The position numbers and the translations under genes are program-made. This document shows positions 566-57,928 of a stretch of 64,000 bases of DNA, one piece after another. Every line of letters begins with the position of its first letter. Position 1 is the stretch's first letter. The notes below the pieces were generated by a model. It was given only the letters and a program-made list of their open reading frames with translations, was not told the origin of the DNA and did no database searches. The DNA lies in contig OZ024747.1 of the NCBI GenBank assembly GCA_964016885.1, positions 37,200,001 through 37,264,000 of the forward strand, read 5' to 3'. Source of the stretch: Eledone cirrhosa (taxonomy: Eukaryota).

Positions 566-830
566 GAATATATATATATATAGATAGAAAGATAATAGAT
601 AGATAGATAGATAGATTTCTTTATTTACCATAAAGGCATAAAAAGAAGGGACAAATACAAAGGGGGAGTTTACATATAATCGAGTAAAAAGGGTGTAACA
701 TGAAAATAATCGAAAATAACCTCAAAAGGGAGGGGACGTGATGGGGGTTGCACACACCCCCGAAAAAGTGTGCAATCCTTTGCCCAGGGAGCACATGGAG
801 AAGGTGCTCCCCTCTCCTTTACTTCTTTAC

Positions 831-3800
831 CTACAGGATGGTATACAGAGAAGGCCCATTTACACGAGCCATTCTCGCCACTATCACCCACCTTTCATAA
901 AACTGCCTGTGGCCAAGCACCTCTCTCTCCATTCTTATCCTTCTTCCGAAGTGATATCGGAAGAAGTAGACCAGACTATGGCCAGAGAGGAAGTTGCCTG
1001 ACCTCAGACCTTTCAATCGTGTCCACCAAACAACCTCTTTCAACATGGCTATTACGCACAGAAAAACCGCCTTTGCTTCCTTTGTGAAGAGGGGAGGCGG
1101 TTTGATTGTCATCACGGACTCGGCTGTCAATTTAATCGGCGCCACCCGCGACAGCAGTTGTTCGGCGTAGCCCCACAGATCAGCCACGCCCGGACATTGC
1201 ACCAATGCGTGCGCCACGGTTTCTTCGTGACGCACGCATCTAGGGCAAATCTTTTTTGAGGGATCCCTGCCCGGGCGCCCGTGTCTGTAGAGCCTCTCTC
1301 GAACGGGTAGAGCCCCTCGGTAGCACTGCCAGGCCAGTGACTTCTGGAAGTTGTCCATTGGTCCTGGGCCGAAAGTCCTACCGAACAGGCTGGCCAGTTC
1401 GTCTTCTTCCATGTCCAGCGACTCTCCAAGGGTGTCATCGCCCCTGCTAGCCACCAGCCCTCTATAGAATGATGAGGTGGATTCTCCACCGATGGCCCGG
1501 CCCGCTTGCCAGAGAGCCCTGAGCGCCTGAGCACACTCAGTGTGCCAGTCTCCCAGTTTTCCGGATCTTTGCTTGACCCAGGACTGTAGCTCGGTGAGTG
1601 AGACGAGTCTCGGAAAGGCTCGTTTCACGAACGGAGCCCACACCGGTTGACCAGTGAGGAATACCTGTAGGTGCCGTAGCCTTAATGCGTGCCTACGCAT
1701 CATCAACCACGGCATCCCCAGCCCTCCTTTCGAAGGTTGTTGGCAGCAGATGGATCTTCTCACCATAGGAGGACGCTTCTTCCAAAGAAATTGGAAGAGC
1801 ATGCGTTCCATGGTGGTGAGTGTTTCCTTAGGGCAAGGCACGACAGTCAGGCGGTAGTAAGTGACGGACGCTATGTAAATGTTCGCCACCTCCGCCCGGC
1901 CTTTTAGGGACAGCTTACACTTGGCCCATTTCTGGGTTAGTGCAAACACCTTGTTCGTAACCTCGTTCCAGTTCTTTTCCACCTGGAGGTCCGGTCCAAA
2001 CCAGACCCCAAGCAACTTTACCGGGCCCTCCGTCCAGTGTCCGACGACACCATCGGGAGGCATCGGTCTGCCTCTCCACGTTCCGAGTTGCAGCCCGATG
2101 GATTTTTCCCGGTTCAGTTTCGCTCCTGACAACCTTTCGTACTCCTCCAGTAAGGTACCGATCGCCTCGATCTCCGAGTCGGTTGATACCATTACTGTTA
2201 CGTCATCGGCGTAGGCCGACACCGCTTTGCTCAATCCTGGTTCCAGGGGGATACCCTGCAACAACTCCAACTTCCTCAGTAAAGGCTCGAGAGTCAATAC
2301 GTACAGAAGGGAGGAGAGAGGGCACCCCTGTCGAATGGATCGTGTGATTTCGAACGGCTTCGAAAGGTAGCCGTTCACCTTGATCCTAGAACAGATGTGG
2401 TTGCTATGTAGGGCAGTGATCCAGCCTCTGAAAACAGGACCGAACCCAGCCGCCGCTAGCACCGCATCCAGGTAACCATGGTCGACCCTATCGAATGCCT
2501 TAGACTGATCCAAGTTGATCAGGGCCCCACCGAAGCCGGGTTTGTTGCCAACCCTCTCTATGATGTATCGCATGAGGTGGAGGTTATCGTGAATGGACCT
2601 GGATGGGATAGCACATGTCTGCGCATCTCCCACCAGGCCACCCACGACAAGCGCCAACCTCTTTGCTAACACCTTGGCCAAAATCTTTAACTCTGTGTTT
2701 AGCAGGGTTATGGGCCGAAAATTATTTATACTATCCCCCTTGTTCTCGTCCTTCCTCACCAGCGTGACTACGCCCTTGGCTACAGAACAAGGAATTCTCC
2801 CGTTCTGCTGCCAATTGCAGTAGACCGCTTCGAGGAGTTCGGAGAAGAAGACCGGCATTGCTAAATAAAGTTCGTAAGGTATACCATCGAGACCTGGAGA
2901 TTTGCGTCTGCTGCATTGGCTCAGCGCATCTCCGATCTCATCAGCCGAGATTGGTCCTTCGCAGGACTCTGCCTCTTTGCTCGAGAGACGCGGCAGGCCG
3001 TCGAGGTATGGACCGAAATCCACGCCCCGGCCCGGACCCTCGCCTCCCCCGAACAATCGGGCAAAGTGCTTTTGAAAGGCCTCGCACATCTGCTTAGGCT
3101 CCCGGATCACTCGTCCATCTTCGTCTTGCAACGACCGGATGGTGGATCGATTTCCACTTTTAGCTTCTGTCACGCGGGCCCATCCAACGGCTTTGGCCCC
3201 CTCATTACCTAGAGCACGTATTTTACTTCGAATGACGCAGCCTTCATGCTTTGCATCGAAAAACTGGTTCAAGGCCGTCCTCGATGCCAGCACTCTGGCC
3301 ACATCTTCGCTCTTGATTGCCTCTTCTAATTTACCTGTTAATTCTTTCTCGTTTCTATTCCTATTGGCAGCTAACATCTTGCTATAACTTATTGATTCTG
3401 TTCTAATCTCTCTTTTGAGAGATGCCCACCATCGGTTGTTGACGATTGCACCCGTCAACCTCTCCTTAACTAATCTGCTAATCCGGTTTCTGTAAGTCTC
3501 TTTTGCCGGTAAAGACAAATTAAGTTTCCAGTAACCGGGACCCTGTCTATGTGTTTTCTCGAGATTGACCACGCAGGTCACTAATTTGTGATCCGTGTAG
3601 CCAACCGTGCGCATTTCTGGACAGCTTAATATGTCCCTATCCTTACTTCTAACTAAGAATCTATCTAAGTACGATCTAGATTGACCACTGTGGTTTCTCC
3701 AAGTCCAGGTAGGCACAGTTGGAAAATCTAGTCGATATCTATCGACCAAGTTAAAACGGTCGAGTAACCCCTTGAGGCTGTTACACCCCCCTCTATTAGG

Positions 3801-4268: not shown

Positions 4269-4301
4269 GTGGGCGGCAGAGCCAAAGGAGAGTGTAGAGA
4301 C

Positions 4302-6179
4302 CTACCTTTCCGCTTCCCGGGGTTCGGGTTGCACGACTTCCATGGGGTCGGGGGTGTTGGGTGAAGGGGTGTCTTGTGGTGGTGTGGGGTCGTCGGTGTG
4401 TGGTGGGGTTGGGGTGTTTGGAGTTGTGTTGGGGAGGGGAAGGGGAGGGGGAAAGCTTTTTAGTAGGACGCGGTTTATGGGTTTGACAGAGGGTGGTCCT
4501 ACGTCCTCCTTAAAATCCTTTTTTAGTTTTTGGTAGAGGTTCATTGGGATTTTTATTAGTTTTAAATGTGGGTGGTTTTCTGAAGAAACAAAGTTTACAC
4601 CTTCGGTTTGTACCGAAGGATTATTGTATATGAGTTCATTTAATTTATTATTGTTTCTGTTGATGTAAGTATAGTGTAGTGTCTTTTTTTCCGATGGTGT
4701 GAGTGTTTCGAAGAGGGGAGGGGCAGGTTTGGTTTTGTTTGTTGCTGGAGGGGTGTTTTCTGTTTTGTTAGATTGTGTTGCGATTTGGGTGGGGGTTGTT
4801 TGTCCTTGTGTGTTTTGCACATGTTTTCTTTTTTTCCTTTTAATCTGTCTGAAGGACTCCGTTTCTTCCTCCGAATTCGTTGGGTTATCTTCAGTGTTGG
4901 AGGGAAGAGGTATGTTTGCTGGTAATGTTTCCGTGTTGGTTTTCTTTGTGGGGGAGATGGATGTCACTATGTTAGACTGTGTTGTGTGTTGTGTCTGCGG
5001 TGGTTGTGTTGTTTTATTGAGTGAGAGGTTGGGTGGGCCTGTATTTTGTTTTGGGGTAATGTGTTGTGACTGTTTGTGTTGTGGTGGTGTTGTGGTGTTA
5101 CTGAGGGACGGGTTGGGTGGGACTGAGTTTTGTTGTTTGTTTATCTGTTGTGGTGGTGGTGGTGGAGCTGGTGTTGGTAGCAGGGTTTTCTTTTTGTTGA
5201 GTTGGGGACAAGCGGCCTTCAGGTGCCCTCTGCCTGCACAGATATGGCAGGACGGCCTTCTCCCCTCCACGCTAATGTTTATATACCCGTGGTCCTCTAA
5301 TAGGATTCTGTCGGGTATTTGGGCGATGCGTTCAGGCTTCATTTGTACTACCAGCTCTATACCTGTTCCACTGAACGCATTGCCTGTGGTTTTCCCAATG
5401 GAAATCACGTTGTCATTCACTGGATCGATGAAGCCAGCTATGAGCCAGCAGTAGTCCACATCTGGCATCATTGCATCCAGCCATATGCGTTGAGTTTTTT
5501 TTCCCATATAAGATGGATAAAAGGTGAAATTTTTCGAACGAATCGGTGACAAAGCACATTTTTTTGCCGCCGATTCGTTCTTCATGATAATTGCTAGGCT
5601 TCCATACAGTCTGTCTTTTCTTATGAAAGTTGTTTCATTCAGTACTTCTGCGAGTACTGTTTTGATATCTGCTTGAGAAGGCTGTTCAGGTTTTTTTGTA
5701 CTGTTGTTGATGGTCCGAAACTTGACCGTTCGGCTTTCAATGTCTTTCGTGAATTCTTGAGGCATTTTTACCAATAAAATACCATTCTCACCTTCACTTA
5801 TGTATTGTTTTGCGTCCGTGATCCTTCGTACCACATCTGAAATGTTTTCCGCTATATAAGTCAAAGATTTCTTTGTTTTCTGTGCAAATGAAGTCTTGTC
5901 GTCTGCTTTGTTTTCTGATATTATGTTATTTTCAACTGTTATTTTTTTGTTTGTTGTGTCTTTGTTTGTGTTATTAGTATTGTCATGCAATTTTTCAAAT
6001 TTTTTTTCTTCGTTGTTTTCGACATTTAATTTTTTCTCCGCAGATTCGTCCGTTTTTATTTTCATTTTTTCTTCCTTCTCTATGACGTTAGTTGGGAAGG
6101 AAGGGAGGACTAAAGCGTGCGAGCTTACAACTCTTACCGCTGTCCCCCCACCACTATTTTCGTTCGCTGCGTTTAACAT
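4302..6179 (-). CDS. E1 ORF1: nucleic-acid-binding protein with CCHC zinc knuckle (625 aa)
   Basis: CHICAGRGHLKAAC knuckle; upstream of ORF2; homologous to ORF1 of E3/E4. Confidence 0.9.
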   Translation of the reverse strand: MLNAANENSGGGTAVRVVSSHALVLPSFPTNVIEKEEKMKIKTDESAEKKLNVENNEEKKFEKLHDNTNNTNKDTTNKKITVENNIISENKADDKTSFAQKTKKSLTYIAENISDVVRRITDAKQYISEGENGILLVKMPQEFTKDIESRTVKFRTINNSTKKPEQPSQADIKTVLAEVLNETTFIRKDRLYGSLAIIMKNESAAKKCALSPIRSKNFTFYPSYMGKKTQRIWLDAMMPDVDYCWLIAGFIDPVNDNVISIGKTTGNAFSGTGIELVVQMKPERIAQIPDRILLEDHGYINISVEGRRPSCHICAGRGHLKAACPQLNKKKTLLPTPAPPPPPQQINKQQNSVPPNPSLSNTTTPPQHKQSQHITPKQNTGPPNLSLNKTTQPPQTQHTTQSNIVTSISPTKKTNTETLPANIPLPSNTEDNPTNSEEETESFRQIKRKKRKHVQNTQGQTTPTQIATQSNKTENTPPATNKTKPAPPLFETLTPSEKKTLHYTYINRNNNKLNELIYNNPSVQTEGVNFVSSENHPHLKLIKIPMNLYQKLKKDFKEDVGPPSVKPINRVLLKSFPPPLPLPNTTPNTPTPPHTDDPTPPQDTPSPNTPDPMEVVQPEPREAER

Positions 6180-7118: not shown

Positions 7119-10100
7119 GGCACCTGGAGACCTTTCTGTGTACGTCTCGCCCTTTACTGTTAGCGGGGGACTGGAATGGCATCTTAGACGCGCGCTGGGA
7201 TTGTGTGGGAGTAGCCTATAGGAGGGGGGTGCAAAAGCCTCAAGCACCTACTCAGCCAGTTCCAACTGTCTGACAGGTATCGACTAGATTTCCCCAATGT
7301 GCCAGTATGGACATGGTCCAACCGAATGGGGTCATCTAGATCGTATATAGACAGGATCTTCATTAGGAAAATAGATAGAAATATTGTAGGCTGCCCACTT
7401 TTTAAAACGGTCGCCTATTCAGATCACAAATGTGTGATCTGTACGGTCGACCTAGAGAAAACGCGTAGGTTAGGACCTGGTTACTGGAAGTTGAACATGT
7501 CATTTCCGGCACGTAAGGCTTACAAGAACCGAGTCAACAATTTAGTTAAGCAAAAGTTGACAGGGGGGATCATCAACAACAGATGGTGGGGGGGGGGGGC
7601 TCTCAAAAGAGAGATAAGAGTAACTTCGATAGAGTTCAGCAAAGAACTAGCGTTAGAGAAAAATAGTAAGGAGAGGGAGCTGGTAGATAAGTTAGACGAG
7701 GCTATTGGTAGTGGCATTGCAACTGACGTGCTAGCGGCGAGAATGGCATTAGACCATTTCTTCAATGCGAAACACGAAGGTTGCATTGTCAGAGCTAAGG
7801 CACGTGCGCTGAGAAACGAGGGAACCAAAGCTGTTCGATGGGCCCGCGTGGCGGAGGCGCAGCGTGGTAATAAAACCACAATTCGGTCTTTGACGGACCG
7901 AGACGGACACGAGATAAGCGATTCCAAGCGGGTGTGTGAGGCCTTTCGCCAGCATTTTGCTCGGTTGTTCACGGAGAGTGACGAGTCAGAGAGAGTAGCG
8001 GATTTCAGTCCCCACCTTGACGGCTTGCCGCGCATCTCGACGGTCGACGCCGAGCGCTGCGAAAGGCCGATTACTTCAGCCGAAATTCAGGACGCCCTTG
8101 TCGGCTGCATGAATCGCAAGTCACCCTGTTTGGATGGCCTGCCCTACGAGCTTTACGTAAATATGCCAAACTTGTTCTCCGATCTCCTCGAAGCACTCTA
8201 CTGCAACTGGCAGCACAATGGGAGTATTCCCAGTTCTGTGAGCAGGGAGTGGTGACGCTGATAAGGAAAGACGAGAACAAGAGGGATACATTAGACAACT
8301 AGGCCCATAACTCTGCTCAACACAGAGTTTAAGATTTTGGCCAAGGTGTTAGCAAAGAGATTGGCGCTTGTCGTCGAGGATTTGGTTGGGGAGGCGCAAA
8401 CTTGCGCAATCCCAGCCAGGTCCATACACGACAATCTCCACCTCATGCAATACATCATAGAGAATGTAGGGTGTAAACCTGGCTTCGGTGGGGCACTGAT
8501 CAATTTAGATCAATCGAAAGCATTCGATAGGATCGACCATCGGTATCTGGAGTTTGTCCTCAAAGCAGCTGGCTTCGGCCCTGTCTTCAGAAGCTGGATC
8601 GCTGCAATACACAGCGGTACTTGCTCGTTGGGCAAAGTTAATGGCCACCCCTCGGAACCATTTCGGCTCTCCCGATCGGTCCGTCAAGGGTGCCCTCTCT
8701 CTTCCCTTCTGTACGTATTGACTCCCGAGCCTTTACTGCGGAAGCTGGAGCTATTGCAGGGCATCCAGCTCGAACCGGGACGTGGAAAGGCGGTGTCGGC
8801 TTATGCGGAGGACATCACCGTGATGGTGTCGAACACCTCAGAAATTGAGGTGGTCGGCACCTTATTGAAGGAATATGAAAGGTTGACAGGAGCCAAACTT
8901 AACCCGGAAAAGTCGGTGGGCTTGCAGCTCGGTACCTGGAAAGGCAAGCCCAACAGCGTCGTGGGGCGCTAGACGGACGGACCGGTAAAGTTGCTCGGGG
9001 TTTGGTTCAGACCAGACATCCAGGTGGAAAAGAATTGGGACAAGGTAACGAGCAGAGTAGCCAGTCTCACCCAAAAATGGGCTGGGAGGAAGCTATCACT
9101 GAAAGGTCGCGCGGAGGTGGCGAATGCGTACATCGCGTCCGTCATCTACTACCGCCTGACCGTCGTGCCTTGTCCCCGTCCGCGCCTCGTCAAGTTGGAA
9201 CGGCTCCTCTTCAAATTCTTGTGGAGGGGACAAATTCCGTTGGTGAGGCGGTCCATCTGCTGCCAGCACCCTCTACGCGAAGGGCTGGGCTTGCCGTGGC
9301 TAGGACACTCCAGTTATTCTGCCGAAACGGTGAACAGGTGTGGTCGCCGTTTATCAGAGACTGGGTGACTGGCACCTGGAATGTTGACAGGCACTCACTG
9401 CCCTCTACCAAGCGAGCAATGCAATCAGTGAAACTTCCACTCTCGAGTTCTATAGAGGATTAGTGGTGGGAAGTGCGATGACGCACTCGGAGAAGCTTTA
9501 GACCACGACGAAGTCGAACTGACCAGTCTGTACCGGAGGACTTTCGAGCCGGGCACGATGGACAATTTCCAGAAATCCCTCGCTTGGCAGTGCTACCGGG
9601 GGAGCACTGCCGGTTCGGGATAAACTCTACAGACACGGAAGTGCTGTCAGACGGACCTGCCCATGATGCGCACAGAACGACGAAACCGTTCTGCATGCAC
9701 TTGTCCAATGTCCGTGCATTACTGACTTATGGAGTTATGTCGAACAGCTACTGTCGCGTGTGGAACGAATCCGGCTATCGGTCGAGTCCATAGTGAAGAT
9801 CGACCCGCCGCCTTCCTTAGGTCAGGAAGAGCAGGAAATGTTCCTCTGTCTGGTGGCAGTTGCGAAAGAGGTTATATGATGGACCAGATTAAAAGGACTG
9901 AAGACAGAAACTTTTCTCTTCGGCCAATCCCTCATCAACTTCTTAAAGTTTCACCTGGAAAGAAAGGTGAGGGTGGAGAGAGAAGTGCTTCCCCCCAGTA
10001 CATTTGCTAAAAGGTGGATGAATGTGGCGAGAATGGTCCATGTGAATGGGCCTACTCTGACCATGCGCCTATAGGCTAGCTAACTTGAGGAGAGGGGCTG

Positions 10101-10552: not shown

Positions 10553-10577
10553 AAATAATTATTATTATTATTGTGCT

Positions 10578-14846: not shown

Positions 14847-16826
14847 ATGGCTAATTCACCTCTGCACCAAGCAGCTGAAAGCCTTCCTCACAAATTAACA
14901 CCTCACACCGACACCACCATTGTAAATGTTACTACGTTTACCAACACTAAAAAAATATAAGCAGTAGCAATATTTTAAATTTGTCTCAGGCAGACATTCA
15001 TTTCCCGTCATTACCAATGACTGCAGGTGTTAAAGCCGCCACCACCACCACTACCGCGACAACCCCCACCCCACCACCACCGCGACAACAGAAACAAAAG
15101 GAAAAAATAAATCAACTCGTGATGTCGAAATATTTTCGACCAAAATGGACTCTTCCAAACCGACTTTCACTAACGTCCCCACCATCACAACTGAAACTAA
15201 AATTAATAATAACAAAAATAACGATAGCAACAACAACAATGACATTAAAAAAAACCACCCTGAGTTTTGCCAGAGTAGCAAAACAGTTCGAAGCATTTAC
15301 GGTAACTCAGGAGGGTTTAGAAAATGCCAAACAAATGGTAAAGAAAGATGGGTACAGGGTCAGCCTCACCCCCCCCCCCTAATAAAATGGAGCATCGGCG
15401 CCTATGCACCGTGTCGTATCGAACAATAAATGTAAAATCGCGCCGAGTGGAACGGGCATCCGAGTCCCAAATCCAAAAAGCTTTGGGACATGTGTGGGCA
15501 AGAAAAATCCACATCAGACGTGGGCAGAAGTATGGAACCGTGGACGTGTTCTTTGAAACACCAGAGGAGGCTAGAGAACACTCCATGGCCCCATTAAGAA
15601 GTGACGACTTCACACTCGTCCCAAGCTATTGTGGCCAGAGACTCGTAAAGATCAGGGTGACCCACGTTCCACCGACCATCGAAATTCCCTGGCTAATAGC
15701 GGCCGTCCTCGCCGGCATCGAAGCCAACACAAAGATAATAGCAATAGCAAAAGAAAAGCAGGAGAACTGGTCCGGATCTGGGATGGAGCTCCTGATCCAA
15801 GCGGACCAAAAGAGCATTGAAGAGATCCCAGAGGTAATAGACCTCACTGACGGCAGCCACCTCACCGTAATTGTCGAGGGCAGAAGGCCTAGGTGCGTCG
15901 TTTGTGGTGAAGGAACCCACCTAAGGGCTTTCTGCCCTCAGGCTAAAAGGTTGAGGCCACCTCTCCTACCCACCCCAGTGACACAACCATCAACACCACC
16001 AGTAGCAGAGATGGCAGCAACAACTGTAGCAGCAACAACAGAAGCAACTATAACAGCAACAACCCCATCAACAGTAGCAAAACCAACACCACCACCACCA
16101 GCAAAACCAACACCACCACCACCGAACGCTTCAGAACTAGCACCAGCGCCTACACCATCCACCACGCCACAAACAAAACTAACGCGTGTGGACGATTTTC
16201 CACTCCCCGGCCTATCACAACTGGAGACAGATTGTGACGACGAGGAGTGGGAAACGGTATCAGGAAAAAAAAAGAAACCAAAAAAGAAAAAATTCTCTTC
16301 ATTCCCCCTCCAAAAACAAAATACAGAGGGAAACAAATAAATTAACAAACAAAAAAGTTAGGACAGATATGCCACCATCCACACCAGCATCACCAACCAC
16401 ATCAAACCCAAACACCAACACCATCACCATCATTAACCCCAACACCACCATCACCTACACCACAAAAGTCACCAAAATGCGAAACAGAAACAAACCCACA
16501 ACAAACGCAAACAAAACAACCAAAACGATACACACTACACAGCATTAAATTTGAACAACAACCAATTATTACACTACATCCAACACAACACCAGCATCAC
16601 AGAAAATGACTACACAACAACCCAAAAATTCACACCACCTCCACACATACAAATCACTCGCATCACACAGAAAACGTACATGACACTAAAACAAAAATTC
16701 CCCAAAGACATCGGAGACTTCCGACAAGCACTCTCCAGGAGGATTTATAAGGACATCCTTCCTGAGGAGGCCACAGGCAGTGAAAAGGATGGAAAAACCG
16801 TCCTTCCCCTACGAGAAGTAAGGTAA
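14847..16826 (+). pseudogene. E3 ORF1, broken into several frames
   Basis: CVVCGEGTHLRAFC knuckle in 15348-16340; C-terminal domain in 16551-16826; breaks lie at or near A/C homopolymers. Confidence 0.8.
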
Positions 16827-16861
16827 GTGGTCTTTCCCATCTTTTCCACTCTATTTTAAAC

Positions 16862-19800
16862 ATGACCTCACTCAGAATAGGCAGCATAAATGCGCGTGGC
16901 TTGGGGTCGTCATGGAAGCAGGGTCACCTGCTCAACGACCTCAGGTCACTAAACATAGATGTAGTGGCCATCAGCGAGACCAGAATCTCCGAAGCACGGG
17001 CCTTCGCACCGATCTTCGGCGGCTACGATGTGTACGCATCTCCCAGCCGTCCTGGATCGGGTGGAGGAGTTGCTGTGCTTTTTCGGAGAGGTTTGGATCT
17101 CGCCATACGGGCCATCTTCCTGGACCCAGAGGGTAAGCTGGTGGTGCTGGACGTGACCAGCGGAGACGGGCAAGCTTTCAGGCTAGTGGCCGTCTATGCC
17201 CCGACAGGAGCAGGGCGGCCTGATTTCTTCCGGCGTCTGGAGACCTTTCTTGGAACGTCCCGCTCTTTAGTGTTAGTGGGCGACTGGAACGGGATCTTAG
17301 ATGCACGCTGGGACTGTGTGGGATTAGCGGATAGGGGTGGAGGGTGCAAGAGCCTCACCAACCTGCTCAGGCGTTTTGAACTGTCTGACAGGTACCGATT
17401 GGATTTCCCGAATGTGCCAATGTGGACTTGGACAAACCGCATAGGGTCATCCAGATCATATCTAGATAGAGTATTTTGTAGGGAAATAGATAGGTCTAGC
17501 ATAGGCTGTCCACAATTCAAGATAGTCAGCTACACGGACCACAAATTCGTGACCTGTGTGCTTGACTTAGATAGGCTTCATAGACGAGGACCCGGCTACT
17601 GGAAGCTAAACGCGTCCTTACCAGCGCGCAAGGCCTACAGAGACCGGATTAGCGAACTAGTTAAGCGGGCGTTGACGGGGGCCATCGTCAACAACAAGTG
17701 GTGGTTTGCTCTGAAAAGAGCGATTAGAATAGAATCGATTAGGTTTAGTAAGGCTTTAGCAATAGAGAAAAATAGAGCAGAGGGAGAACTAGTTAGAAAA
17801 TTAGACGAGGCGCTTAGCAAAGGCATTGCGACCGACGTGCTTGCGGCGAAATTGGCCCTTGACCAATTCTTCAATGCAAAGCACGAAGGCTGCGTTGTCA
17901 GAGCTAGGGTGCGTGCTCTCAGACACGAGGGGACGAAAGCCGTTCAATGGGCCCGAGTGGCGGAGGCGCGTCGTGGCAACAAAGCCACGATCCGGTCTTT
18001 GGTGGACCACGACGGGCGCATGCTACTCGATCCCGGGCAAATGTGTGAAGCTTTTCAGCGACACTTCGCTCAGCTGTTCGGGGGCAGCGGGGGGCCGGGT
18101 AGAGGGATGGACTTTAGTGTCTACCTCGACGGACTGCCGCGGCTCTCGGCCACTGAGGCGAAGTGTTGCGAAAAGCCGATAACAGCCGCTGAAGTACGGG
18201 AGGCAATGACTGGCTGCACAAGGGGTAAATCGCCTGGTTTGGATGGTCTGCCCTATGAACTTTACGTACAGATGCCAGACTTGTTCGGAGGCCTCTTGGC
18301 GGACGTCTACTGCAACTGGCAACAGAACGGGAGAATTCCCAGTTCTGTGAGCCGAGGAGCGGTGGCACTGCTGAGAAAGGATCCGAACAAGGGGGATAAC
18401 ATAGACAATTTCCGGCCCATAACTCTGCTAAACACAGAGTTTAAGATTTTGGCCAAGGTGCTAGCAAAGAGGTTGGCGCTTGTCGTTGGTGGTCTGGTGG
18501 GAGAGGCGCAGACATGCGCCATTCCCGACAGATCCATCCACGACAACCTCCACCTCATGCGATACATCGTAGAGAGGGTAGCTAGGGAACCTGGCACGGG
18601 TGGGTCCTTGATCAATTTAGATCAGTCGAAAGCTTTCGATAGGGTCGACCATCGTTACCTAGCGGCAGTCCTGAGGGCGGCTGGCTTTGGGCCCGTCTTC
18701 AGAGGCTGGATCGCTGCCATGCACAGCGACATCTGCTCTGTAGTGAGAGTGAACGGTCACCTGTCGGAACCGTTCAACATCATGCGCTCGGTCCGCCAAG
18801 GATGTCCCCTCTCGTCCCTCTTGTACGTATTGACTCTCGAGCCATTACTGCACAAACTGGAGACGTTGAGGGGAGTCCCGCGCGAACTAGGATGCGGAAG
18901 ATCCGTGTCAGCATATGCGGACGATGTCACCGTAGTGGTGTCGAACGCCAAACACATCGAGGCGATCGGCACTACACTAAGAGAATACGAAGCGGTGACA
19001 GGAGCAATGATCAACCAGGAAAAGTCAGTGGGCCTGCAGCTCGGCACCTGGAGAGGCAGGTCCATGCCGTCCAACAGCGTCGTCGGGCGCTGGACGGACG
19101 GACCGGTTAAATTGCTAGGGGTCTGGTTCGGTCCGGACCTCCAGACGGACAAAAACTGGGACGAGGTGACGAGCAGGGTGGCTTCTCTCACCCAGAAATG
19201 GGCGGAGAGGAAGCTATCCCTGAAAGGTCGAGCGGAGGTGGCTAACGCGTACATCGCGTCTGTCATCTGCTACCGCCTAACCGTCGTACCTTGTCCTAAG
19301 CCTCGCCTGACTGCGCTGGAGCGTTTGCTCTTTCGCTTTTTGTGGAAGGGACGTGCTCCGATGGTCAGGCGGTCCATCTGTTGTCAACACCCGCTACGTG
19401 GAGGGCTGGGCATGCCGTGGCTGATGATGCGCAGGCACGCGCTCAGGCTACGACATCTCCACCTCTTCCTCGACGGTGATCAGGTGTGGTCGCCGTTTGC
19501 TAGACGCGTTTTTCCCCAGCTCGTTTCCTTGACGGAGCTGCAGTCCTGGGTCAAGCGAAGACCGAGAGGGAGCGCCTGGAGACTGGAATGTCTTCAGGCG
19601 CTCACAGCCCTCGACCAATCGGGCAATGTGATCGGTGGAAACTCCACCTCGGCGTTCTATAGAGGATTAGTGGAGGGGAAGAGCGACGACGTACTTGGGG
19701 AAACTCTAGGCGTCGACGAAAATCAACTAGCCAATCTCTTCGGAAGAACTTTCGGGCCAGGGCCTATGGACAACTTCCAGAAATCTCTGGCCTGGCAGTG

Positions 19801-20281
19801 CTACCGAGGAGCCTTGCCAGTTCGGGATAAACTCTACAGGCATGGAGGTGCCGTCAGCCGGGCATGTCCGAGATGCGCGCAGGGCGACGAAACCGTCCTG
19901 CACGCACTCGTCCAGTGTCCGAAAATTGCTGACTTGTGGGTTTATGTCGAACACCTGCTGTCGCGTTTAGGACGGATCCAGCTATCATCTGAGTCTATCG
20001 TGAGGATTGCCCCGCCCTCCTCCTTTAGCCGGGAAGGGCAGGCAGTTTTTATCTGTCTGGTGGCCATGGCGAAAGAGATAGTATGGTGGACACGTTTGAA
20101 AGGGCTGAAGACGAGCACTTACCTCTTCGGTGATGCTCTGATTGACTTTTTCAAATTTCATTTGAAAAGGAAAATCAGAGTAGAGAAGGAAGTGCTCTCT
20201 TCCCAGCATTTTGTTGAAAGATGGGTGAGAGAAGCAAGAATGGCCCGAGTGAATGGGCCGACTCTGAGTATATATCTGTAA
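16862..20281 (+). CDS. E3 ORF2: APE endonuclease-reverse transcriptase (1139 aa)
   Basis: Uninterrupted; GDWN, TDH, RQGCPLS, YADD, CPRC..HALVQC. Confidence 0.97.
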   Translation: MTSLRIGSINARGLGSSWKQGHLLNDLRSLNIDVVAISETRISEARAFAPIFGGYDVYASPSRPGSGGGVAVLFRRGLDLAIRAIFLDPEGKLVVLDVTSGDGQAFRLVAVYAPTGAGRPDFFRRLETFLGTSRSLVLVGDWNGILDARWDCVGLADRGGGCKSLTNLLRRFELSDRYRLDFPNVPMWTWTNRIGSSRSYLDRVFCREIDRSSIGCPQFKIVSYTDHKFVTCVLDLDRLHRRGPGYWKLNASLPARKAYRDRISELVKRALTGAIVNNKWWFALKRAIRIESIRFSKALAIEKNRAEGELVRKLDEALSKGIATDVLAAKLALDQFFNAKHEGCVVRARVRALRHEGTKAVQWARVAEARRGNKATIRSLVDHDGRMLLDPGQMCEAFQRHFAQLFGGSGGPGRGMDFSVYLDGLPRLSATEAKCCEKPITAAEVREAMTGCTRGKSPGLDGLPYELYVQMPDLFGGLLADVYCNWQQNGRIPSSVSRGAVALLRKDPNKGDNIDNFRPITLLNTEFKILAKVLAKRLALVVGGLVGEAQTCAIPDRSIHDNLHLMRYIVERVAREPGTGGSLINLDQSKAFDRVDHRYLAAVLRAAGFGPVFRGWIAAMHSDICSVVRVNGHLSEPFNIMRSVRQGCPLSSLLYVLTLEPLLHKLETLRGVPRELGCGRSVSAYADDVTVVVSNAKHIEAIGTTLREYEAVTGAMINQEKSVGLQLGTWRGRSMPSNSVVGRWTDGPVKLLGVWFGPDLQTDKNWDEVTSRVASLTQKWAERKLSLKGRAEVANAYIASVICYRLTVVPCPKPRLTALERLLFRFLWKGRAPMVRRSICCQHPLRGGLGMPWLMMRRHALRLRHLHLFLDGDQVWSPFARRVFPQLVSLTELQSWVKRRPRGSAWRLECLQALTALDQSGNVIGGNSTSAFYRGLVEGKSDDVLGETLGVDENQLANLFGRTFGPGPMDNFQKSLAWQCYRGALPVRDKLYRHGGAVSRACPRCAQGDETVLHALVQCPKIADLWVYVEHLLSRLGRIQLSSESIVRIAPPSSFSREGQAVFICLVAMAKEIVWWTRLKGLKTSTYLFGDALIDFFKFHLKRKIRVEKEVLSSQHFVERWVREARMARVNGPTLSIYL

Positions 20282-20541
20282 ACTAAAGGTGGAAAACTGG
20301 GAGAGGGCACTTGCCTTGGTGGTCAGGGTCATTGTGGCTTTTTACTGGGCTTTCTCCACAAATGTCCCTCCGAAGTCTCCCCCCTTTTGGGGAATGTTTC
20401 ATTGTTATTTTCATTGTTATTTTTGTTACATCCTCTGTTTTTGTTTTTTTACACGCAGAAATGCCCATTTGTACCGTCCTGCATTGTCCTGCACTGTCCT
20501 TAATGTCTACTTTATGTACACCCTTGTGGTTAATAAAGAAA

Positions 20542-20573
<32 letters not shown>

Positions 20574-20784
20574 GACGAAAGTGGATGTACGTTTTTTGAA
20601 GCTCCTTGAGTAAGCAATTTTTTGAGGATTAATTGTGGAGAATTGTTTATTTTTTTGTACCGCTGAAGCATTATAAGACATTCATTTGTATCCTGTGAAG
20701 GAATAACTCATAATATTTGGGCCTTTTGGCCCAAATATTTGAACTTTATTTTGGAAAAATAATAATTTCTTTTCTCAAAAAAAC

Positions 20785-22695
20785 GTGGCGGAGCCACGCC
20801 CCCTAGAGGCGGGTCTGCTGTCGTGCAACGGCGACTTGAGCGTTGAGAGGAGAGGTGGGGCGAGGAGCGCCACCAGCACGAGTGTGAGCAGCGACAGTGC
20901 CAGCACCAACGGGCCGAGCGGCGCGGAAGGTGGTAACAGCGACAACACCAACACCAACAAGCCGAACAGCGCAGAAGGTGGTAATAGCGAGAGCACCAAC
21001 AAAACGAACAGCACAGAGAGTAATTGTAGCGACAGCAGCAGCACCAACAAGGCCAACAGCACAGAGGGTAACCACGACACAGGGGAGAACAACAACAGCA
21101 ATAGCAGCAGCAACACCAACAAGAACAAGAACAGTGACAACACCAACAAGAACACCTTCGCTGCTGTGGCAGCGGCTAAAAGGAGACCATGCTACAGCAT
21201 CGACTTAACCAACAGAGAGGAAAAGTTGGCCCAGGCCTGGAAAATCATAAATCAAGAGCAGACCTGGGCAAACTTAACTGTCCCGACAGAAGCCATTGAG
21301 GCAGTGGAAAAAAGAACGGTGCATTTCAGATGCATCTCAGTAGAGACAAAGAGGGCAGCGATAATCGCCCAAGCTGATATAGAAGCCGCACTGAAATACA
21401 TCAGAGAGGACACAGACTTCATAGAGAGGGGCAGGCAATACGGCACCGTTTCGGTGCTGTTCAAGTCTGAAGCCCTCGCTGTGAAGCATTCAATGACCCC
21501 TTGCAAAACCAGCAAGGTCATAATGTACCCCTCCCACATGGGAAAACGAATAGCACGTGTGCGCATTCCCAGGATTCCACCAGGACTTGATATGTGGTGG
21601 CTCCTGGGTTGCGTAATCGTGGAAGGAACGGATACAGTCCCGGTAGAGGGAACGAGAACTGCCAGGGACGACTGGTCCGGGGTTGATCTGGAGATACTGC
21701 TCCAAATCAGACCCGAAAACGTAAAAGCAATCCCGGACCACATCCGCCTCCAAAACGTGAGGGTGTTGCATATAATGACTGAGGGCAAAAGGCTGCATTG
21801 TTTCCTTTGTGGGGAAACGACACACTTGCGAGCCTTCTGCCCTCAACTGCCGAAAAGCGCAAGGGGTCGAAAGATTCCACTGCTGGCGACGCCGGGACAA
21901 GGACCACCAGCAACACCGTCAACAATGGAACCACCAAAATTGCATACCCAGGGGGGAAACGAGGAAAGCTCTCCCATTCCCCCTCCCCCCCAAAATACAC
22001 ACACGAACAAGAACATAAACACTCACTCAGACACAAACACGCTCACAGCCACAGACCCCTCATCCTCCAGCAGTGAAGATGAGGGAAAACCAAAATCCCC
22101 CAAAATACAAAAAACAAAACACAAAAAAAAAAGAAATCCACAAAGCACAAACACCCCCACAAAAAAAAATACACACACCACCCACACAAACATTTTCCCC
22201 ACAGCATCACCAACACAACCACCAAAATCCCCCAAACGCAAACAAGCTAAACAGACACAAGAACAAATAGACACACAAACATCAGAAACTACAGACACCC
22301 CACCCACAACAAACGCAGACACAATAGAAACAACACTAACAAAGCTATCACCACCACAATCACACGAACAAATAAAACCCGAGCAACAAAACATTAAAAA
22401 CTTCGTGCTTGCCAGAAGGGCCAACAAGGAATTGATGGCCCATGTAGCACGAAGCACAAACATCGAAAAAGACGGGGAAACATTTGAAGCGAGCACATTT
22501 CGCGTACCAGATAATTTGCTTCTGATGCGAATGTCGCTCGCTTCATACAAAGAAATTCGAAAGAGCTTTCCTCGGGATGTGGGAACCCCGAACGTAAAAC
22601 CCACTTCAAGACTATTAAAGGGGTTCCCAAAAGAAACCCCACAAACCATGGAGGTCGAACCACCCGACCTTCACAAGACCCCGGAAGGTAAGTAA
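20785..22695 (+). CDS. E4 ORF1 (636 aa, begins at GTG; Asn/Ser-rich N-terminus, CCHC knuckle)
   Basis: Open frame; CFLCGETTHLRAFC; start codon uncertain. Confidence 0.85.
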   Translation: MAEPRPLEAGLLSCNGDLSVERRGGARSATSTSVSSDSASTNGPSGAEGGNSDNTNTNKPNSAEGGNSESTNKTNSTESNCSDSSSTNKANSTEGNHDTGENNNSNSSSNTNKNKNSDNTNKNTFAAVAAAKRRPCYSIDLTNREEKLAQAWKIINQEQTWANLTVPTEAIEAVEKRTVHFRCISVETKRAAIIAQADIEAALKYIREDTDFIERGRQYGTVSVLFKSEALAVKHSMTPCKTSKVIMYPSHMGKRIARVRIPRIPPGLDMWWLLGCVIVEGTDTVPVEGTRTARDDWSGVDLEILLQIRPENVKAIPDHIRLQNVRVLHIMTEGKRLHCFLCGETTHLRAFCPQLPKSARGRKIPLLATPGQGPPATPSTMEPPKLHTQGGNEESSPIPPPPQNTHTNKNINTHSDTNTLTATDPSSSSSEDEGKPKSPKIQKTKHKKKRNPQSTNTPTKKNTHTTHTNIFPTASPTQPPKSPKRKQAKQTQEQIDTQTSETTDTPPTTNADTIETTLTKLSPPQSHEQIKPEQQNIKNFVLARRANKELMAHVARSTNIEKDGETFEASTFRVPDNLLLMRMSLASYKEIRKSFPRDVGTPNVKPTSRLLKGFPKETPQTMEVEPPDLHKTPEGK

Positions 22696-22724
22696 ACCTT
22701 TCCTCTCCCATTCATCCTGCCAGC

Positions 22725-25700
22725 ATGGCCATAAGAGTAGGAAGTTTAAATGTTCGTGGCCTGGGGTCGCCCTGGAAGCAAGGTCACTTGCTCAACGACC
22801 TCAGGTCACTAGGAATGGATGTAATTGCCATCAGCGAGACCAGAATTTCCGACACACGCGCACTGGCGCCGATTTTCGACGATTATCAGATCTTTGCATC
22901 TGTTAGTCGGCCGGGAATGGGAGGTGGAGTGGCTGTGCTGTTTAGGAAATGTCTGGATCTCGAGGTAAGGTCAATCTTCCGGGATCCTGACGGAAAGTTG
23001 GTGGTCCTGGACGTGAGCAATAGCGAAGGTGGTGCCTTTAGACTGGTGGCCGTCTACGCCCCTACTGGGGCCGGTCGGCCGGACTTCTTTAGGCGCCTGG
23101 AAAACTTTCTGCTTACGTCTCGCCCTTTACTGTTAATAGGGGATTGGAATGGCATCTTAGAAGCACGCTGGGATTGTGTGGGAGTATCTGATAGGAGCGG
23201 GTGGTGCAAAAGCCTCAAGTACCTGATCAGCCAGTTTCAACTGTCTGACAGGTACCGACTAGATTTCCCTAATGCGCCAGTATGGACCTGGACCAATCGC
23301 ATAGGGTCATCTAGATCGTACATAGATAGGATTTTCATTAGGAAAAGAGATAGAAATAGTGTAGGATGTCCACATTTTAAAACGGTTGCCTATTCAGATC
23401 ACAAGCTTGTGATCTGTATGGTCGACCTAGATAAGACACGTAGGTTAGGACCCAGCTACTGGAAGCTAAACATGTCGTTTCCGGCACGTAAAGCTTACAG
23501 GGACCGGGTCAACAACTTAGTTAAGCAAAAGTTGACAGGGGGGGTTGTCAACAACAGGTGGTGGGGGGCTCTCAAAAGAGAGATTAGAGCAACCTCGATA
23601 GGATTTAGCAAAGAAGTAGCAATAGAGAAAAATAGAAAGGAGGAGGGGCTGATAGCTAAGTTAGACGAGGCTATTTGTAGTGGCATTGCAACAGACGTGC
23701 TAGCGGCGAGAATGGCACTAGACCATTTCTTCAATGCGAAACACGAAGGTTGCATTGTCAGAGCTAAGGCGCGTGCTCTGAGGAACGAGGGAACCAAAGC
23801 TGCCCGATGGGCTCGCTTTGCAGAGACGCAGCGTGGAAATAAAACCACAATTCGGTCTTTGACGGATCGAGATGGACACGAACTGAGCGATTCCAAGCAG
23901 ATGTGTGAGGCCTTTCGCCAGCACTTTGCTCGATTGTTCGGGAGGATGGGTGAGTCGGAGATGGCGGCGGACTTCAGTCCCTACCTCGACGGCTTGCCAC
24001 GCCTCTCGACGGCCGACGCTGAGCGCTGCGAAGAGCCGATAACATCAGTCGAAATTCAGGACGCCCTTGTCGGCTGCTCGAGTCGCAAGTCACCCGGTTT
24101 GGATGGTCTGCCCTACGAGCTTTACGTAAATATGCCAGACTTGTTCTCCGATCTCCTCGAAGCGCTCTACTGCAACTGGCAGCAGAACGGGAGCATTCCC
24201 AGTTCTGTGAGCCGTGGCGTAGTGACGCTGATAAGGAAAGACGAGAACAAGAGGGACACTCTAGATAATTTCAGGCCCATAACCCTGCTCAACACAGAGT
24301 TTAAGATTTTGGCCAAGGTGTTAGCGAAAAGGTTGGCGCTTGTCGTCAAAGATTTGGTTGGGGAGGCGCAAACTTGCGCAATCCCGACCAGGTCCATACA
24401 CGACAACCTCCACCTCATGCGATACATCATAGAGAGGGTTGGGTGCAAACCTGGCTTCGGTGGGGCTCTGATCAATTTAGATCAATCGAAAGCATTCGAT
24501 AGGGTCGACCATCGGTACTTGGAGGCTGTCCTCGAGGCGGCTGGCTTCGGCCCCGTCTTCAGAAGCTGGATCGCTGCAATGTACAGCGGCATCTGCTCGG
24601 TGGTCAAAGTTAATGGCCACCTCTCGGAACCGTTTCAGATCTCTCGATCGGTCCGTCAAGGGTGCCCTCTCTCCTCACTTCTGTACGTATTGACTCTTGA
24701 GCCTCTACTGCGGAAGCTGGAGTTGTTGCAGGGCATCCCGCTCGAACCGGGACGCAGAAAGGCTGCGTCCGCTTATGCGGACGACATCACCGTGATGGTG
24801 TCGGACACCTCGGAAATCGAGGTGATCCGCACCCATTTGGAGGAATATGAAAGGTTGACGGGAGCAAAACTTAACCCGGAAAAGTCGGCACCTGGAGAGG
24901 CAAGTCCATGCCGTCCAACAGCGTCGTTGGGCGCTGGACAGACGGACCGGTAAAGTTGCTCGGGGTTTGGTTCGGACCAGACCTCCAGGTGGATAAGAAT
25001 TGGGACGAGGTGACGAGCAGGATAGCCAACCTCACCCAGAAATGGGCTGAGAGAAAGCTATCACTGAAAGGGCGGGCGGAGGTGGCGAACGCGTACATCG
25101 CGTCCGTCATCTACTACCGCCTGACCGTCGTGCCTTGCCCCCGTCCACGCCTCGCCAATTTGGAACGGCTCCTTTTCAAATTTTTGTGGAGGGGACGGGT
25201 CCCGTTGGTGAGGCGGTCCATCTGCTGCCAGCACCCTCTTCGTGGAGGGCTGGGCATGCCGTGGCTAATGATGCGCAGACATGCGCTGAGGCTGCGACAT
25301 CTCCAGATATTTTGCCTAAACGGTGAACAGGTGTGGTCGCCGTTTGTTAGACGGGCCTTTCCGCAGCTCATCTCTTTGACTGAGCTGCAGTCCTGGGTCA
25401 AGAAGAGACCGAGACTGGGCGACTGGCATCTGGAATGTTGCCAGGCGCTCACTGCACTCTGCAAGGTGGGCAATGCGGTCAGTGGAACTTCCACTCAAGA
25501 TTTCTATAGAGGATTAGTGGAGGGCAAGTGCGATGACGTACTAGGAGAGGCTCTGGGCGTCAACGAAGTAGAACTGACCAGTATGTTCCGGAGGACTTTC
25601 GAGCCGGGGACGATGGATAACTTCCAGAAATCCCTCGCTTGGCAGTGCTACCGGGGGGCGCTGCCGGTTCGGGATAAACTCTACAGGCACGGAAGTGCTG

Positions 25701-26128
25701 TCAGACGAACCTGCCCGAGATGCGCGCAGAGCGACGAAACCGTTCTGCACGCACTCGTCCAGTGTCCGTGCATTGCTGACTTGTGGGGTTATGTCGAACA
25801 GCTATTGTCGCGTGTAGAACGGATCCGGCTATCGTCCGAGTCCATAGTGAAGATTGACCCGCCGCCTTCTTTTGGTCAGGAAGGGCAGGCAATTTTCCTC
25901 TGCCTGGTGGCAGTAGCGAAAGAGGTTGCATGGTGGACCAGGTTGAAAGGACTGAAGACAGACACTTTTCTCTTCGGCCAATCCCTCATCAACTTCTTCA
26001 AGTTTCACTTGGAAAGGAAGGTGAGGGTGGAGAGAGAAGTGCTGCCCCCCAGTACATTTACTGAAAGGTGGGTGAATGTGGCGAGAATGGCCCGCGTGAG
26101 TGGGCCTACTCTGATCATGCGCCTGTAG
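22725..26128 (+). pseudogene. E4 ORF2 split by a 16-bp deletion frameshift near 24885
   Basis: AAAGTCGGCACCTGG here versus AAAGTCGGTGGGCTTGCAGCTCGGTACCTGG in E2; deletion lies between TCGG microhomologies. Confidence 0.92.
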
Positions 26129-27039
26129 GCTGGTGAATTCGAGAAGGAGAGGGGTGCCCTTCCCGGGTGCCCTAGGAGCGTCGGGTGGCTCAGGACTGGT
26201 GGGGTGCTTGAGTCAACCCTGGGTGGTGATCCCTCTTATTGGGGAACTTTCATTGTTGTATTTTTATTGTTATTTTGTTTTTTGTTATTTATACTTACTC
26301 GATCTCTATGTAAACCCCCACTGTCCCTGTCTATTGTGTTGTCTCCTATATGTCGGCCCTTGTGGCCAATAAATGAAATCATTATCATTATTGTTATTAT
26401 TATGTTTTTTTTGTTTTTTTTCTCGTGCAATGGCCATACTCGATAACGAGGGGGCTGCCATCATGTATGTATGTATATTTTATGTATTTATAATATATAT
26501 ATATACATAATATGTGTGTGTGCCTATGCACATGTGTGTGTACACACGCATATATGTACCACGGTAGGGGTGGTAGCGCTGGTGGTGATGGTGTATACAA
26601 ACATATATGCCCGTGTAATTGTGTATGTATGTAAACATGCATATTTGGATGAATATATATTTTTAGATAGATAGATATATAGATAGATATACATTTGCTT
26701 TTACACATATATATGCATATATATACATGTGTATGTGTGTGTGTGTGAGAGAGAGAGAGCGTGTGTGTATGTGTGTGTATGTGTGTGTATGTGTGTGTGT
26801 ATGGATGTTTATATATATCTATATATATACATTCATATACGTATATGCACACGTAAATGAACATCAACGTGAACAAGAGGAAGAAAAACCAACCATGAAA
26901 ATTTAGAAAATACTAATCGATAAATATTTCTTATCGAACCGAAGCTTTAAGAGATCCCTGAATCTTCTAGAGTGGAGTCACGTGCTGGGCTTCGTGAAGA
27001 GAAATTTCAATATCGGCAATTATGTCTCTGAGAACGGCT

Positions 27040-27538
27040 GTGGTGGTGGTGGTCGTGGTGGTGGTGTGCGGGCGATGGTGGTGGTGGTGGTGGTGGTGGT
27101 GGTGGTGGTAGGGTTGGTGGTGGTGATGTGCGGGCGATAGCGATGGTGGTGGTGTGCGGACGTTGGTGGTGGTGGTGATGTGCGGGCGATAGCGATGGTG
27201 GTGGTGGTGTGCGGGCGTTGGTGGTGGTGGTGATGGTGGTGGTAGGGTTGTTGGTGGTGGTGGTGGTGGTGGTGGTGGTGGTGGTAGGGTTGGTGGTGGT
27301 AGTGGTGGTGTGCGTGCGATGGTGGTGGTAGAGTTGTTGTTGTTGGTGGTGGTGGTGGTGGAGGTGGTGGTGGTGGTAGTGCGGGCAATGGTGGCGATGG
27401 TGGGGGGTGGGGTGGGGTGGGTGGGGGTGGGGAGGAAGCTGTAGTGGGATGGGGGGACGGTAGTGGTAAGGTTGGTGGCGGCGGTGGTGGTGGTAGGGAT
27501 AGTGTGGGGGGGGTTATGTGGTTGTGGTGGTAGCGGTT

Positions 27539-27573
<35 letters not shown>

Positions 27574-27625
27574 CATGGTGGTAGTAGTAGTAGTGGTGCA
27601 GCTGGTGGTGGTTGTAGTAGTAGGC

Positions 27626-27665
<40 letters not shown>

Positions 27666-27683
27666 AAGTAGTAGTAGTAGTAT

Positions 27684-27728
<45 letters not shown>

Positions 27729-27733
27729 AAATA

Positions 27734-27777
<44 letters not shown>

Positions 27778-27844
27778 AGTAGTAGTGGTAGTAGCTGTAG
27801 TAGTAGTAGTAGTGGTGATAGTGGTAGTAGTAGTTGTAGTAGTT

Positions 27845-27875
<31 letters not shown>

Positions 27876-28209
27876 CGGTGGTAGTAGTAGTAGTGGTGAT
27901 AGTGGTAGTAGTAGTTGTAGTAGTAGTAGTAGTAGTAGTGGTGGTGCTGTTGCCACTGCTGCTGGTGGTGGTGGTGACTATAATGGTGGTGGTGTTGGTA
28001 CTGCTGGTGTAGTGGGGGTGGGGGTGGGGGTGGCGGGTAGCTGTAGTGTTGTGGAGAGGGTGACGGTAGTGGTGGTGGTGGTGGCGGCGGTGGTGGCAGT
28101 AGGGATAGTGTGTGTGTGTGTGTGTGTTGGGGGGGGGTATGTGTTTGTGGTGGTAGTAGTAGTAGTAGTAGTAGTCATGGTGGTAGTAGTAGTAGTGGTG
28201 CAGCTGGTG

Positions 28210-28275
<66 letters not shown>

Positions 28276-28318
28276 TTAGGAGTAGTAGTAATAGTAGTAT
28301 TAGTAGTAGTAGTAGAAA
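27040..28318. repeat. Compound (GGT)n/(AGT)n simple-repeat tract
   Basis: Directly visible; ~27425-27730 is echoed at ~28015-28318. Confidence 0.93.
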
Positions 28319-37620: not shown

Positions 37621-37627
37621 TGATATA

Positions 37628-56900: not shown

Positions 56901-57928
56901 CCTCCAGTTAGAGAAAAACTGTAGCGAGGTGACAAGGTGACGAATGCATTCATCGCATCCGTCATCTGCTACCGCCTAACCGTCGTGCCTTGCCCGGCCC
57001 AACTCTGACCAAAATGGAGAGCCTCCTCTTCTGCTTTTTGCGGAAGGGACGTGCTCCCATGGTCACTAGTATCGGTGGAACATCCACCTCGACCAAGACG
57101 ATCAGCTATTCGCTCTCTTCAAAAGAACTTTCAGCCCGGGGCCTGTGGACTACTTCCAGAAATCCCTGGCCTGGCAGTGCTACCGGAGAGCGTTGCCGGT
57201 TCGAGATAAGCTATACAGGCACGGAAGTGCCGTCAGCCAGACCTGTCCAAGATGCGCGCAGGGCGACGAAACCGCCGCGCACGCACTCGTTCAGTGCCCG
57301 AGCATTGCTGACTTGTGGGGCTATGTCGAGCAGTTTCTGTCGCGTGTAGGACGGATCCGGTTATCGAATGAGTTCATTGTGCAAATAGCCCCGCCGTCCT
57401 TCTTTAAGGAGGAAGAAAGGGAGGCAGTTTTCATCTGCCTGGTGGCTATGACGAAAGAGATTGTATGGTGGGCAAGGTTGAAAGGATTGAAGACGGACAT
57501 TTTCCTCTTCAGCGAATCCCTGATTAATTTTTTCAAATTTCACTTGAAGAGGAAAATCAGGATGGAGAGGCAAGTGCTGTCTTCTATTAAATCTGTTGAA
57601 CGGTGGGTGAAAGTGGTGAGTCTGGTCCGAGTGAACCAGACTCTGAGTAAGCCCCTGTAGACTGAGGAGTGGGAGAACTAGGAGAGGATGCTTGCCCTGG
57701 TGGTCAGGGTGGCCGTTGTCTTTTCTGTGGTTTTCGACTCTCGGAGTTTTCCCCACTATTGGGGAAATTTTGGTATCTGAATTTTTTAATTTGTTTTTAC
57801 ACATTACTATTTTCTTGTTATAACCTTTTTACAGGGCCAAAACCCACATTGTATCGTCCTGTACCGTTCTGTCCCCGTCTATTGTATTGTTACCTATATG
57901 TCGGCACTTGTGGCCAATAAATTAATCC
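53940..57928 (+). mobile_element. E5: 5'-truncated, decayed Tx1-like element (E3-related)
   Basis: ORF1 C-terminal remains; ORF2 from ATG ~54708 to TAG 57660 with stops and deletions; degenerate ATT tail. Confidence 0.92.

Follow-up and report, generated by a model that had tools for sequence, protein, structure and literature searches.

Conserved splice donors and a predicted long-range RNA duplex suggest ORF1-only splicing in L1/Tx1-type LINEs of Eledone cirrhosa

Octopod L1-Tx1 elements, known as the microsatellite-targeting Kibi and Koshi, carry two open reading frames (ORFs), the second of which (ORF2) encodes an APE endonuclease, a reverse transcriptase (RT) and a zinc finger (PMC4494074, PMC13282606). 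In the window, that is, the whole stretch of 64,000 nucleotides (nt) of Eledone cirrhosa that we analysed (assembly GCA_964016885.1, contig OZ024747.1, positions 37,200,001 to 37,264,000, forward strand), elements E1–E5 and E7 are two-ORF retrotransposons without long terminal repeats (LTRs). Their ORF2s have the same layout (Pfam Exo_endo_phos, RVT_1 and zf-RVT), with human L1 ORF2p as best solved relative (E 1.5e-52), and their ORF1s, of about 600 amino acids (aa), can be aligned and share an invariant CCHC, matched by zf-CCHC weakly and below the cut-off in 3 of 8. By their domains, the elements are long interspersed nuclear elements (LINEs) of the L1/Tx1 group; the RT tree holds no named Tx1 references, and the Tx1 label follows PMC13282606. 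Like Kibi and Koshi, they include copies with (ATT)n or (TATC)n at both ends. In the window these are the full-length E1, E3 and E4, where the microsatellite may be tail or target. The available descriptions of Kibi and Koshi mention neither a donor/acceptor pair nor a duplex between the ORF junction and the 3' untranslated region (UTR).

Drosophila copia and the Arabidopsis Ty1/Copia element EVD make a spliced RNA for the structural protein only, with a conserved U1 site and a stop created by splicing; the copia intron is about 3 kb long, and termination is at the normal 3' end (PMC5580714). The Eledone elements would work like this copia-type subgenomic splicing without being members of the group, since they are non-LTR and have two ORFs. 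Copia and EVD, on the other hand, are LTR elements with one gag-pol ORF whose spliced RNAs have been shown (PMC5580714), whereas here splicing of a LINE RNA is read from genomic sequence, ORF1 already has its own stop, and the predicted duplex covers both splice sites. Human L1 SpIREs also involve splice sites within LINE RNA, but their splicing stays inside the 5'UTR or runs into ORF1, and although dead ends they leave genomic copies (PMC5860796), while the intron predicted here spans all of ORF2 and no spliced copies of it were found in the genome. In SART1 and L1, RNA structure where ORF1 meets ORF2 has a bearing on the initiation of ORF2, as it may here, but that structure is local (PMC5972666), whereas the partner strand in the Eledone elements lies 3.4 kb away at the ORF2 stop. 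The excess of ORF1 over ORF2 protein from bicistronic LINE RNA is usually ascribed to inefficient re-initiation (PMC5972666). If true, splicing of a LINE RNA into an ORF1 mRNA in the manner of copia, under the control of a long-range helix, would be a different way to reach this excess, and with at least 10,000 copies carrying the 5' motif of ORF2, strong donors could feed exonisation in host genes. In the literature covered, which leaves aside Repbase reports, papers behind a subscription and the supplements of PMC13282606, any of which could describe these families, we found no report of a LINE that excises ORF2 by splicing or has a comparable duplex.

We consider it probable that some of the transcripts lose the whole of ORF2 by splicing, giving an ORF1-only mRNA, while the duplex keeps most RNA unspliced and damps ORF2 initiation. 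U1 would bind the donor at the end of ORF1, and the acceptor would be the AG of the ORF2 stop codon or, in the E3 family, a CAG in the 3'UTR. By covering the donor, the acceptor and the ORF2 start codon, the predicted duplex would leave most RNA full-length, and the spliced RNA, with a stop in its last exon, would supply surplus ORF1 protein. A broader proposal falls slightly short of an even chance in our judgement: that the whole RT gene is a regulated retained intron, that a helix of 70–90 bp between junction and 3'UTR hides donor, acceptor and ORF2 start and is the switch between ORF1-only and full-length RNA, and that one lineage moved its acceptor and evolved a stop, keeping the spliced product intact. 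The first-pass annotation had argued for selection on a spliced product from a match between donor phase and stop phase. ORF1-only splicing stands as the best reading, not on account of that match but because the donor is invariant in three phases and the E3 family has a relocated acceptor with a derived stop.

The ORF2 5' motif occurs at 10,192 places in the 3.0-Gb genome, and a second motif overlapping it at 4,399 places. The junction sample (n = 109) comprises 60 of the first 100 places of the main motif, 40 of the first 100 of the second, 5 from the window and 4 from tiles, with fetched places picked for motif diversity; the tiling of 400 kb gave only those 4 further usable junctions. On a tree, 85 of the 109 elements were sorted by eye into 20 families, and 24 were excluded because the stretch lacked the ORF2 end or the donor, the stop was broken, or the element looked chimeric. 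The type of 3' tail and target tracks this tree, with (ATT)n in the clades of E2, E3, E4, E5 and E7 and (TATC)n-like repeats elsewhere. Within the window, E2, E4 and E7 form one clade and are thus not independent. The named relatives of the window proteins belong to Argonauta hians, Octopus sinensis and O. bimaculoides, and in a quick protein tree an Argonauta ORF2 nests within the element group as sister to the E3/E5 clade.

The donor lies at the end of ORF1. E4 (20574..26400, plus strand), a full-length L1/Tx1-type LINE of a young family that sits in the (ATT)n tail of E3, has an ORF1 of 650 codons from stop to stop (20743..22695, plus), with a CCHC knuckle and a G-K-stop end. Its donor is AAG/GTAAGT in phase 1 (22685..22693, plus; the slash marks the exon end). 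E3 has the same motif in phase 2, with the ORF1 stop TAA inside it (16820..16828, plus), and E1 has AAG/GTAGGT in phase 2 (4300..4308, minus; GT begins at 4305). The donor of E7 is GAG/GTAAGT (62035..62043, minus) and that of E5 is decayed (54665..54673, plus), both in phase 1; family copies of E5 read GTAAGT. E2 is 5'-truncated (about 7116–10370) and without a donor, and its phase was taken from relatives. The motifs quoted in the first-pass annotation are exact to the letter (E4, GAA G/GTAAGT at 22688 and TAG/GC TGG TGA at 26128; E7 at 62040 and 58751; E5 at 54668 and 57660; E2 at 10074; E3 at 16823, with its TAA), and the ORF1 phases it assigned are borne out both by how far the frames stay open and by alignment to the phase of intact ORF1s.

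AG/GTRRGT stands 25–47 nt upstream of the ORF2 start in all 20 family representatives, and positions -1, +1, +2, +5 and +6 are invariant among them. On an 18-family tree, positions -2 to +6 changed 1, 0, 0, 0, 1, 3, 1 and 0 times (the change at +5 stems from decayed copies), compared with 2–7 changes in the flanks and a mean of 2.79 at 200 four-fold ORF2 sites. In addition, nearly all sampled copies with the ORF2 5' motif have a strong donor beside it. Judged against intact ORF1s, 7 families have the donor in phase 1, 12 in phase 2 and 1 in phase 0. In the phase-0 family ORF1 continues for 12 codons beyond the donor and the donor is kept, so the ORF1 stop does not explain it. The sequence is under constraint far beyond chance and matches the 5' splice-site consensus. 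Shuffled sequences fold into local hairpins at least as stable as those at the E4 and E3 sites. The Argonauta ORF1 homolog P0014 ends in P-E-G-K-S and P0012 in D-Q-G-K, which, from the proteins only, fits an old, retained phase-1 donor.

The E3 family gives the best support for splicing. The first-pass annotation had set E3 apart as an exception that keeps the donor at 16823, ends ORF2 in TAA and restores no nearby stop; the donor and the TAA end hold, and at the family level a stop is found, in the frame of a different candidate acceptor. The intact E3 ORF2 (16862..20281, plus) lacks a terminal AG. Rather, a T-rich tract with CAG lies in the 3'UTR (20436..20458, plus; last intron base 20458), and this CAG ranks first among the 264 AGs of E3. 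TAA ends make up 30 of 155 tallied ORF2 ends, all with E3-family sequence after the stop, and of 32 distinct E3-type 3' ends, 30 end ORF2 in TAA and two, from relatives, in TAG. A T-run with CAG, that is, a 3'UTR YAG with a pyrimidine tract, occurs 138–181 nt into the 3'UTR in 28 of the 30 TAA-ending copies (the others have CAC and CGG), and its median score is the highest among 18 families scored. Sister families mostly have CAC, GAC or GCC at this site, with a CAG nearby in one E5 copy. Codon 20 after this acceptor, read in the donor frame, is a stop ahead of AATAAA in 28 of the 30 copies; where readable, it is TAA in 15, TGA in 9, TAG in 2, TCA in 1 and TAC in 1, the window copy (20517..20519, plus, AATAAA at 20532). 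Sisters have TCA, TCG or TTA at this codon, and the two relatives still ending in TAG have the CAG without the codon-20 stop. We infer that the new acceptor came first, and that the terminal AG was then lost and a stop gained in the new frame. Two-thirds of transitions from TAA yield another stop, some E3-type ends belong to neighbours whose own donor was not read, and a single lineage is involved, so the E3 evidence is suggestive, not proof. As an observation on the same family, E3-family copies L166 on one side and L181 and L157 on the other share an ORF2 end and carry different ORF1s, and the ORF1 of L181 resembles that of the B2 family, which suggests swapping of ORF1 between families.

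The two ends of the predicted intron are also predicted to base-pair. In E4, the 5' strand of the predicted duplex (22672..22730, plus) comprises the ORF1 end, the donor, a pyrimidine spacer and the ORF2 ATG at 22725; its 3' strand (26120..26185, plus) comprises the ORF2 stop TAG, whose AG ends at 26128 and is the candidate acceptor, a TGA at 26134–26136, and a purine tract with an anti-donor. The spacer and ORF2 start are predicted to pair with a stretch made up of the ORF2 stop and some 40 nt of 3'UTR. Pairs from the same family have a mean energy of -32.6 kcal/mol, compared with -26.0 across families (0 of 100,000 permutations), and in 18 of 20 families at most 2 of 108–202 other segments pair equally well. 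The helix runs on through the donor into the ORF1 end (own -27.2, cross-family -22.6). In the anchored core, 19 of 20 families pair the G of the stop with a C that stands four bases upstream of the ATG. Two families show a double change next to the stop, from G to A in the base that follows it and from C to T in the partner, and there are more double changes on either side of the ATG. Of the 9 inter-segment pairs in a consensus fold, 7 carry double changes, compared with 0.3 in 200 shuffled pairings, and the spacer lengths of the two strands correlate (rho 0.58, without correction for kinship). The bases after TAG covary with the inter-ORF spacer via base-pairing. The strand opposite the donor core varies freely and the donor does not, which places the constraint on the donor strand; pairing alone is insufficient to explain it. 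Further afield, among 18 of 49 distant L1/Tx1-like metagenome loci that were examined, none has a donor at the ORF1 stop, and the duplex ranked first in 0 of 11 such loci tested; a search for P0003 in viral contigs found nothing.

The signal at the ORF2-terminal AG is weaker. In E4 most of the predicted intron is ORF2 itself (22725..26128, plus; APE endonuclease, RT and zf-RVT). E2 ends ORF2 with TAG/GC TAG (10072..10079, plus), E5 with TAG/AC TGA (57658..57665, plus), E7 with TAG/AC TGG TGA (58743..58753, minus) and E1 with TAG followed by G TAA, a phase-2 stop (827..833, minus). The co-variation of donor phase and stop phase claimed in the first-pass annotation holds in 12 of the 19 TAG-ending families and fails in the remaining 7: a stop within 3 codons in the donor phase occurs in those 12, whereas the other phases give 9 of 38 (p 0.019 by permutation, kin not being independent), and an immediate stop in 7 of 19 (p 0.32, uncorrected for kinship). 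By phase, the match is 7/7 for phase 1, 1/1 for phase 0 and 4/11 for phase 2. In families D, E and F2 a phase-2 donor goes with a phase-1 stop (L307 among them has an intact ORF1 of 626 codons), and I, Ib, K and Kb have no in-phase stop nearby. The phase-1 stop looks ancestral by eye on trees, one of them a quick protein tree, and E3 retains it despite having no terminal AG; about 2–3 phase shifts went towards a match (F1, the G–M ancestor, M) and 2–4 away. Once kin are counted, the phase signal is weak, and the covarying duplex largely explains the weak ORF2-terminal acceptor. Retention of the TAG was dropped as evidence, since it changed once and 12 of 29 two-fold purine sites are kept just as well. 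Another part of the earlier reading, a CTGAC-like branch point, survives only for some copies of the A clade, which by eye have CTGAY. A test for the lack of any stop before AATAAA was uninformative (donor phase 0/17, other phases 3/34).

Several results weigh against ORF1-only splicing. The terminal AG is a mediocre acceptor, ranking 2–48 among 247–280 AGs on a score table, and a synonymous pyrimidine excess before it was seen in 0 of 17 families. Its bases pair with the ORF2 start context, and the helix itself appears in 2 of 3 whole-RNA folds (E1 and E3), being absent from the minimum-energy fold of E4. The relocation in E3 concerns one lineage, in which the CAG is older than the loss of the terminal AG. 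The genome holds 0 spliced E4 copies vs 335 unspliced, 0 vs 2,497 for E1/I/J/K, 0 for D/E/F2 (without a denominator) and 0 for the E3 family, and none of the 150 ORF1-like database proteins listed, from 755 profile hits, has a spliced-frame tail. A spliced RNA without ORF2 would not be mobilised in cis, which would explain the absent copies; L1 proteins prefer their RNA in cis, and human L1 nonetheless leaves spliced copies (PMC5860796). As for the 7 of 19 TAG-ending families without a near in-phase stop, some with intact ORF1s, the low-complexity ORF1 tail would presumably tolerate a short C-terminal extension, and an immediate stop need not then persist in every family. Many of these points are what we would expect from a U1 site that acts for the most part without splicing and instead guards the long RNA against being cleaved too early, or tunes export and the formation of the 3' end, the acceptor and stops being by-products of a duplex-embedded stop and the duplex serving mainly to control ORF2 translation. 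An invariant donor next to a terminal acceptor that is weak and lost in the E3 family, acceptor bases that covary with the ATG context, the phase mismatches and the missing spliced copies all favour it, and such a role has been shown for Arabidopsis EVD (PMC5580714). It leaves unexplained, however, the derived strong acceptor and derived in-frame stop of the E3 family, and we regard it as unlikely, if the most serious competitor. Avoidance of AG in the 3'UTR counts in favour of ORF1-only splicing but is compatible with both readings. In the last 140 nt of the 3'UTRs of 18 families, AG is depleted more than any other dinucleotide (26 observed against 67.5 expected), and the E3-family CAG lies in this region.

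A reading without any spliceosomal role, in which stop codons, the last ORF1 residues and duplex pairing produce look-alikes kept by descent, draws on the pairing of donor bases with the anti-donor in many families and on the +3/+4 donor variants of phase-2 families, which are the three stop codons TAA, TAG and TGA and also count against ORF1-only splicing. However, the donor core has 0–1 changes vs 2–7 at other paired positions and is conserved also where unpaired and outside a stop, and the acceptor of E3 has relocated, which makes such a reading very improbable. We give equally little credence to a short intron of 41–61 nt that begins at this donor and takes out the ORF1 stop, so that ORF1 and ORF2 become one fused frame. 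In 7 of 20 families, among them every window family except E1, an in-frame YAG does lie 47–61 nt past the donor, and family M has no ORF2 ATG, but the other 13 have no in-frame YAG within 40–95 nt, and the AGs derive from conserved R-V-G codons, one each in phases 1 and 2. Introns of 41–61 nt are very short for an animal.

Family M is of interest in its own right: in L147, L165, L169 and L170, ATA replaces the ORF2 ATG and overlaps the ORF1 stop, and ORF2 is intact in several copies, which may point to non-AUG initiation or recoding in an active family. The search for spliced copies also returned 5 hits that we rejected, since in 2 of them, both donor variants, ORF2 still follows and the other 3 are loci of unrelated sequence, and word-index searches with ORF1 found nothing. 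For E4 only, the contigs of 4 runs of unknown kind list no joint of 22687 to 26129, and contigs drop rare forms; for the same reason, contigs of run X4 that cross the E4 donor and acceptor unbroken were kept out of the evidence. In X4, contig depth is about 190 over 21517–22673, the 3' half of ORF1, and 21 entering ORF2 (about nine times lower), and the contigs on 21517–22673 have an allele that two other runs show as the minor one. This depth was not used as evidence, as contig depth cannot rank parts. Separately, the ORF1 homolog P0012 (603 aa) lies on a 2,209-nt ENA contig, a size just sufficient for ORF1 and two UTRs, as would be expected of an ORF1-only RNA.

The E4 family has 335 exact matches genome-wide to its exon end and donor, and 30 loci that are 100% identical over 401 nt. 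The window copy of E4 has a private 16-nt deletion within ORF2, near 24888, and ends with AATAAA (26368..26373, plus) followed by an (ATT)n tail. Full-length members also form head-to-tail arrays with a period of about 5,840 nt, at C1:423365589-423418126 (ten copies) and C2:264520196-264531837. Elsewhere in the window, 10330–10600 holds an inverted, near-identical copy of the last 200 nt of E2, tail to tail, followed by a short interspersed repeat, and 11103–13927 (minus) holds a broken RT element outside the E1–E7 group, with RVT_1 and a weak zf-RVT. An 11-kb minisatellite with a unit of about 45–48 nt occupies 27400–38400; both of its strands have long open frames, and a segment near 28300–28900 is inverted.

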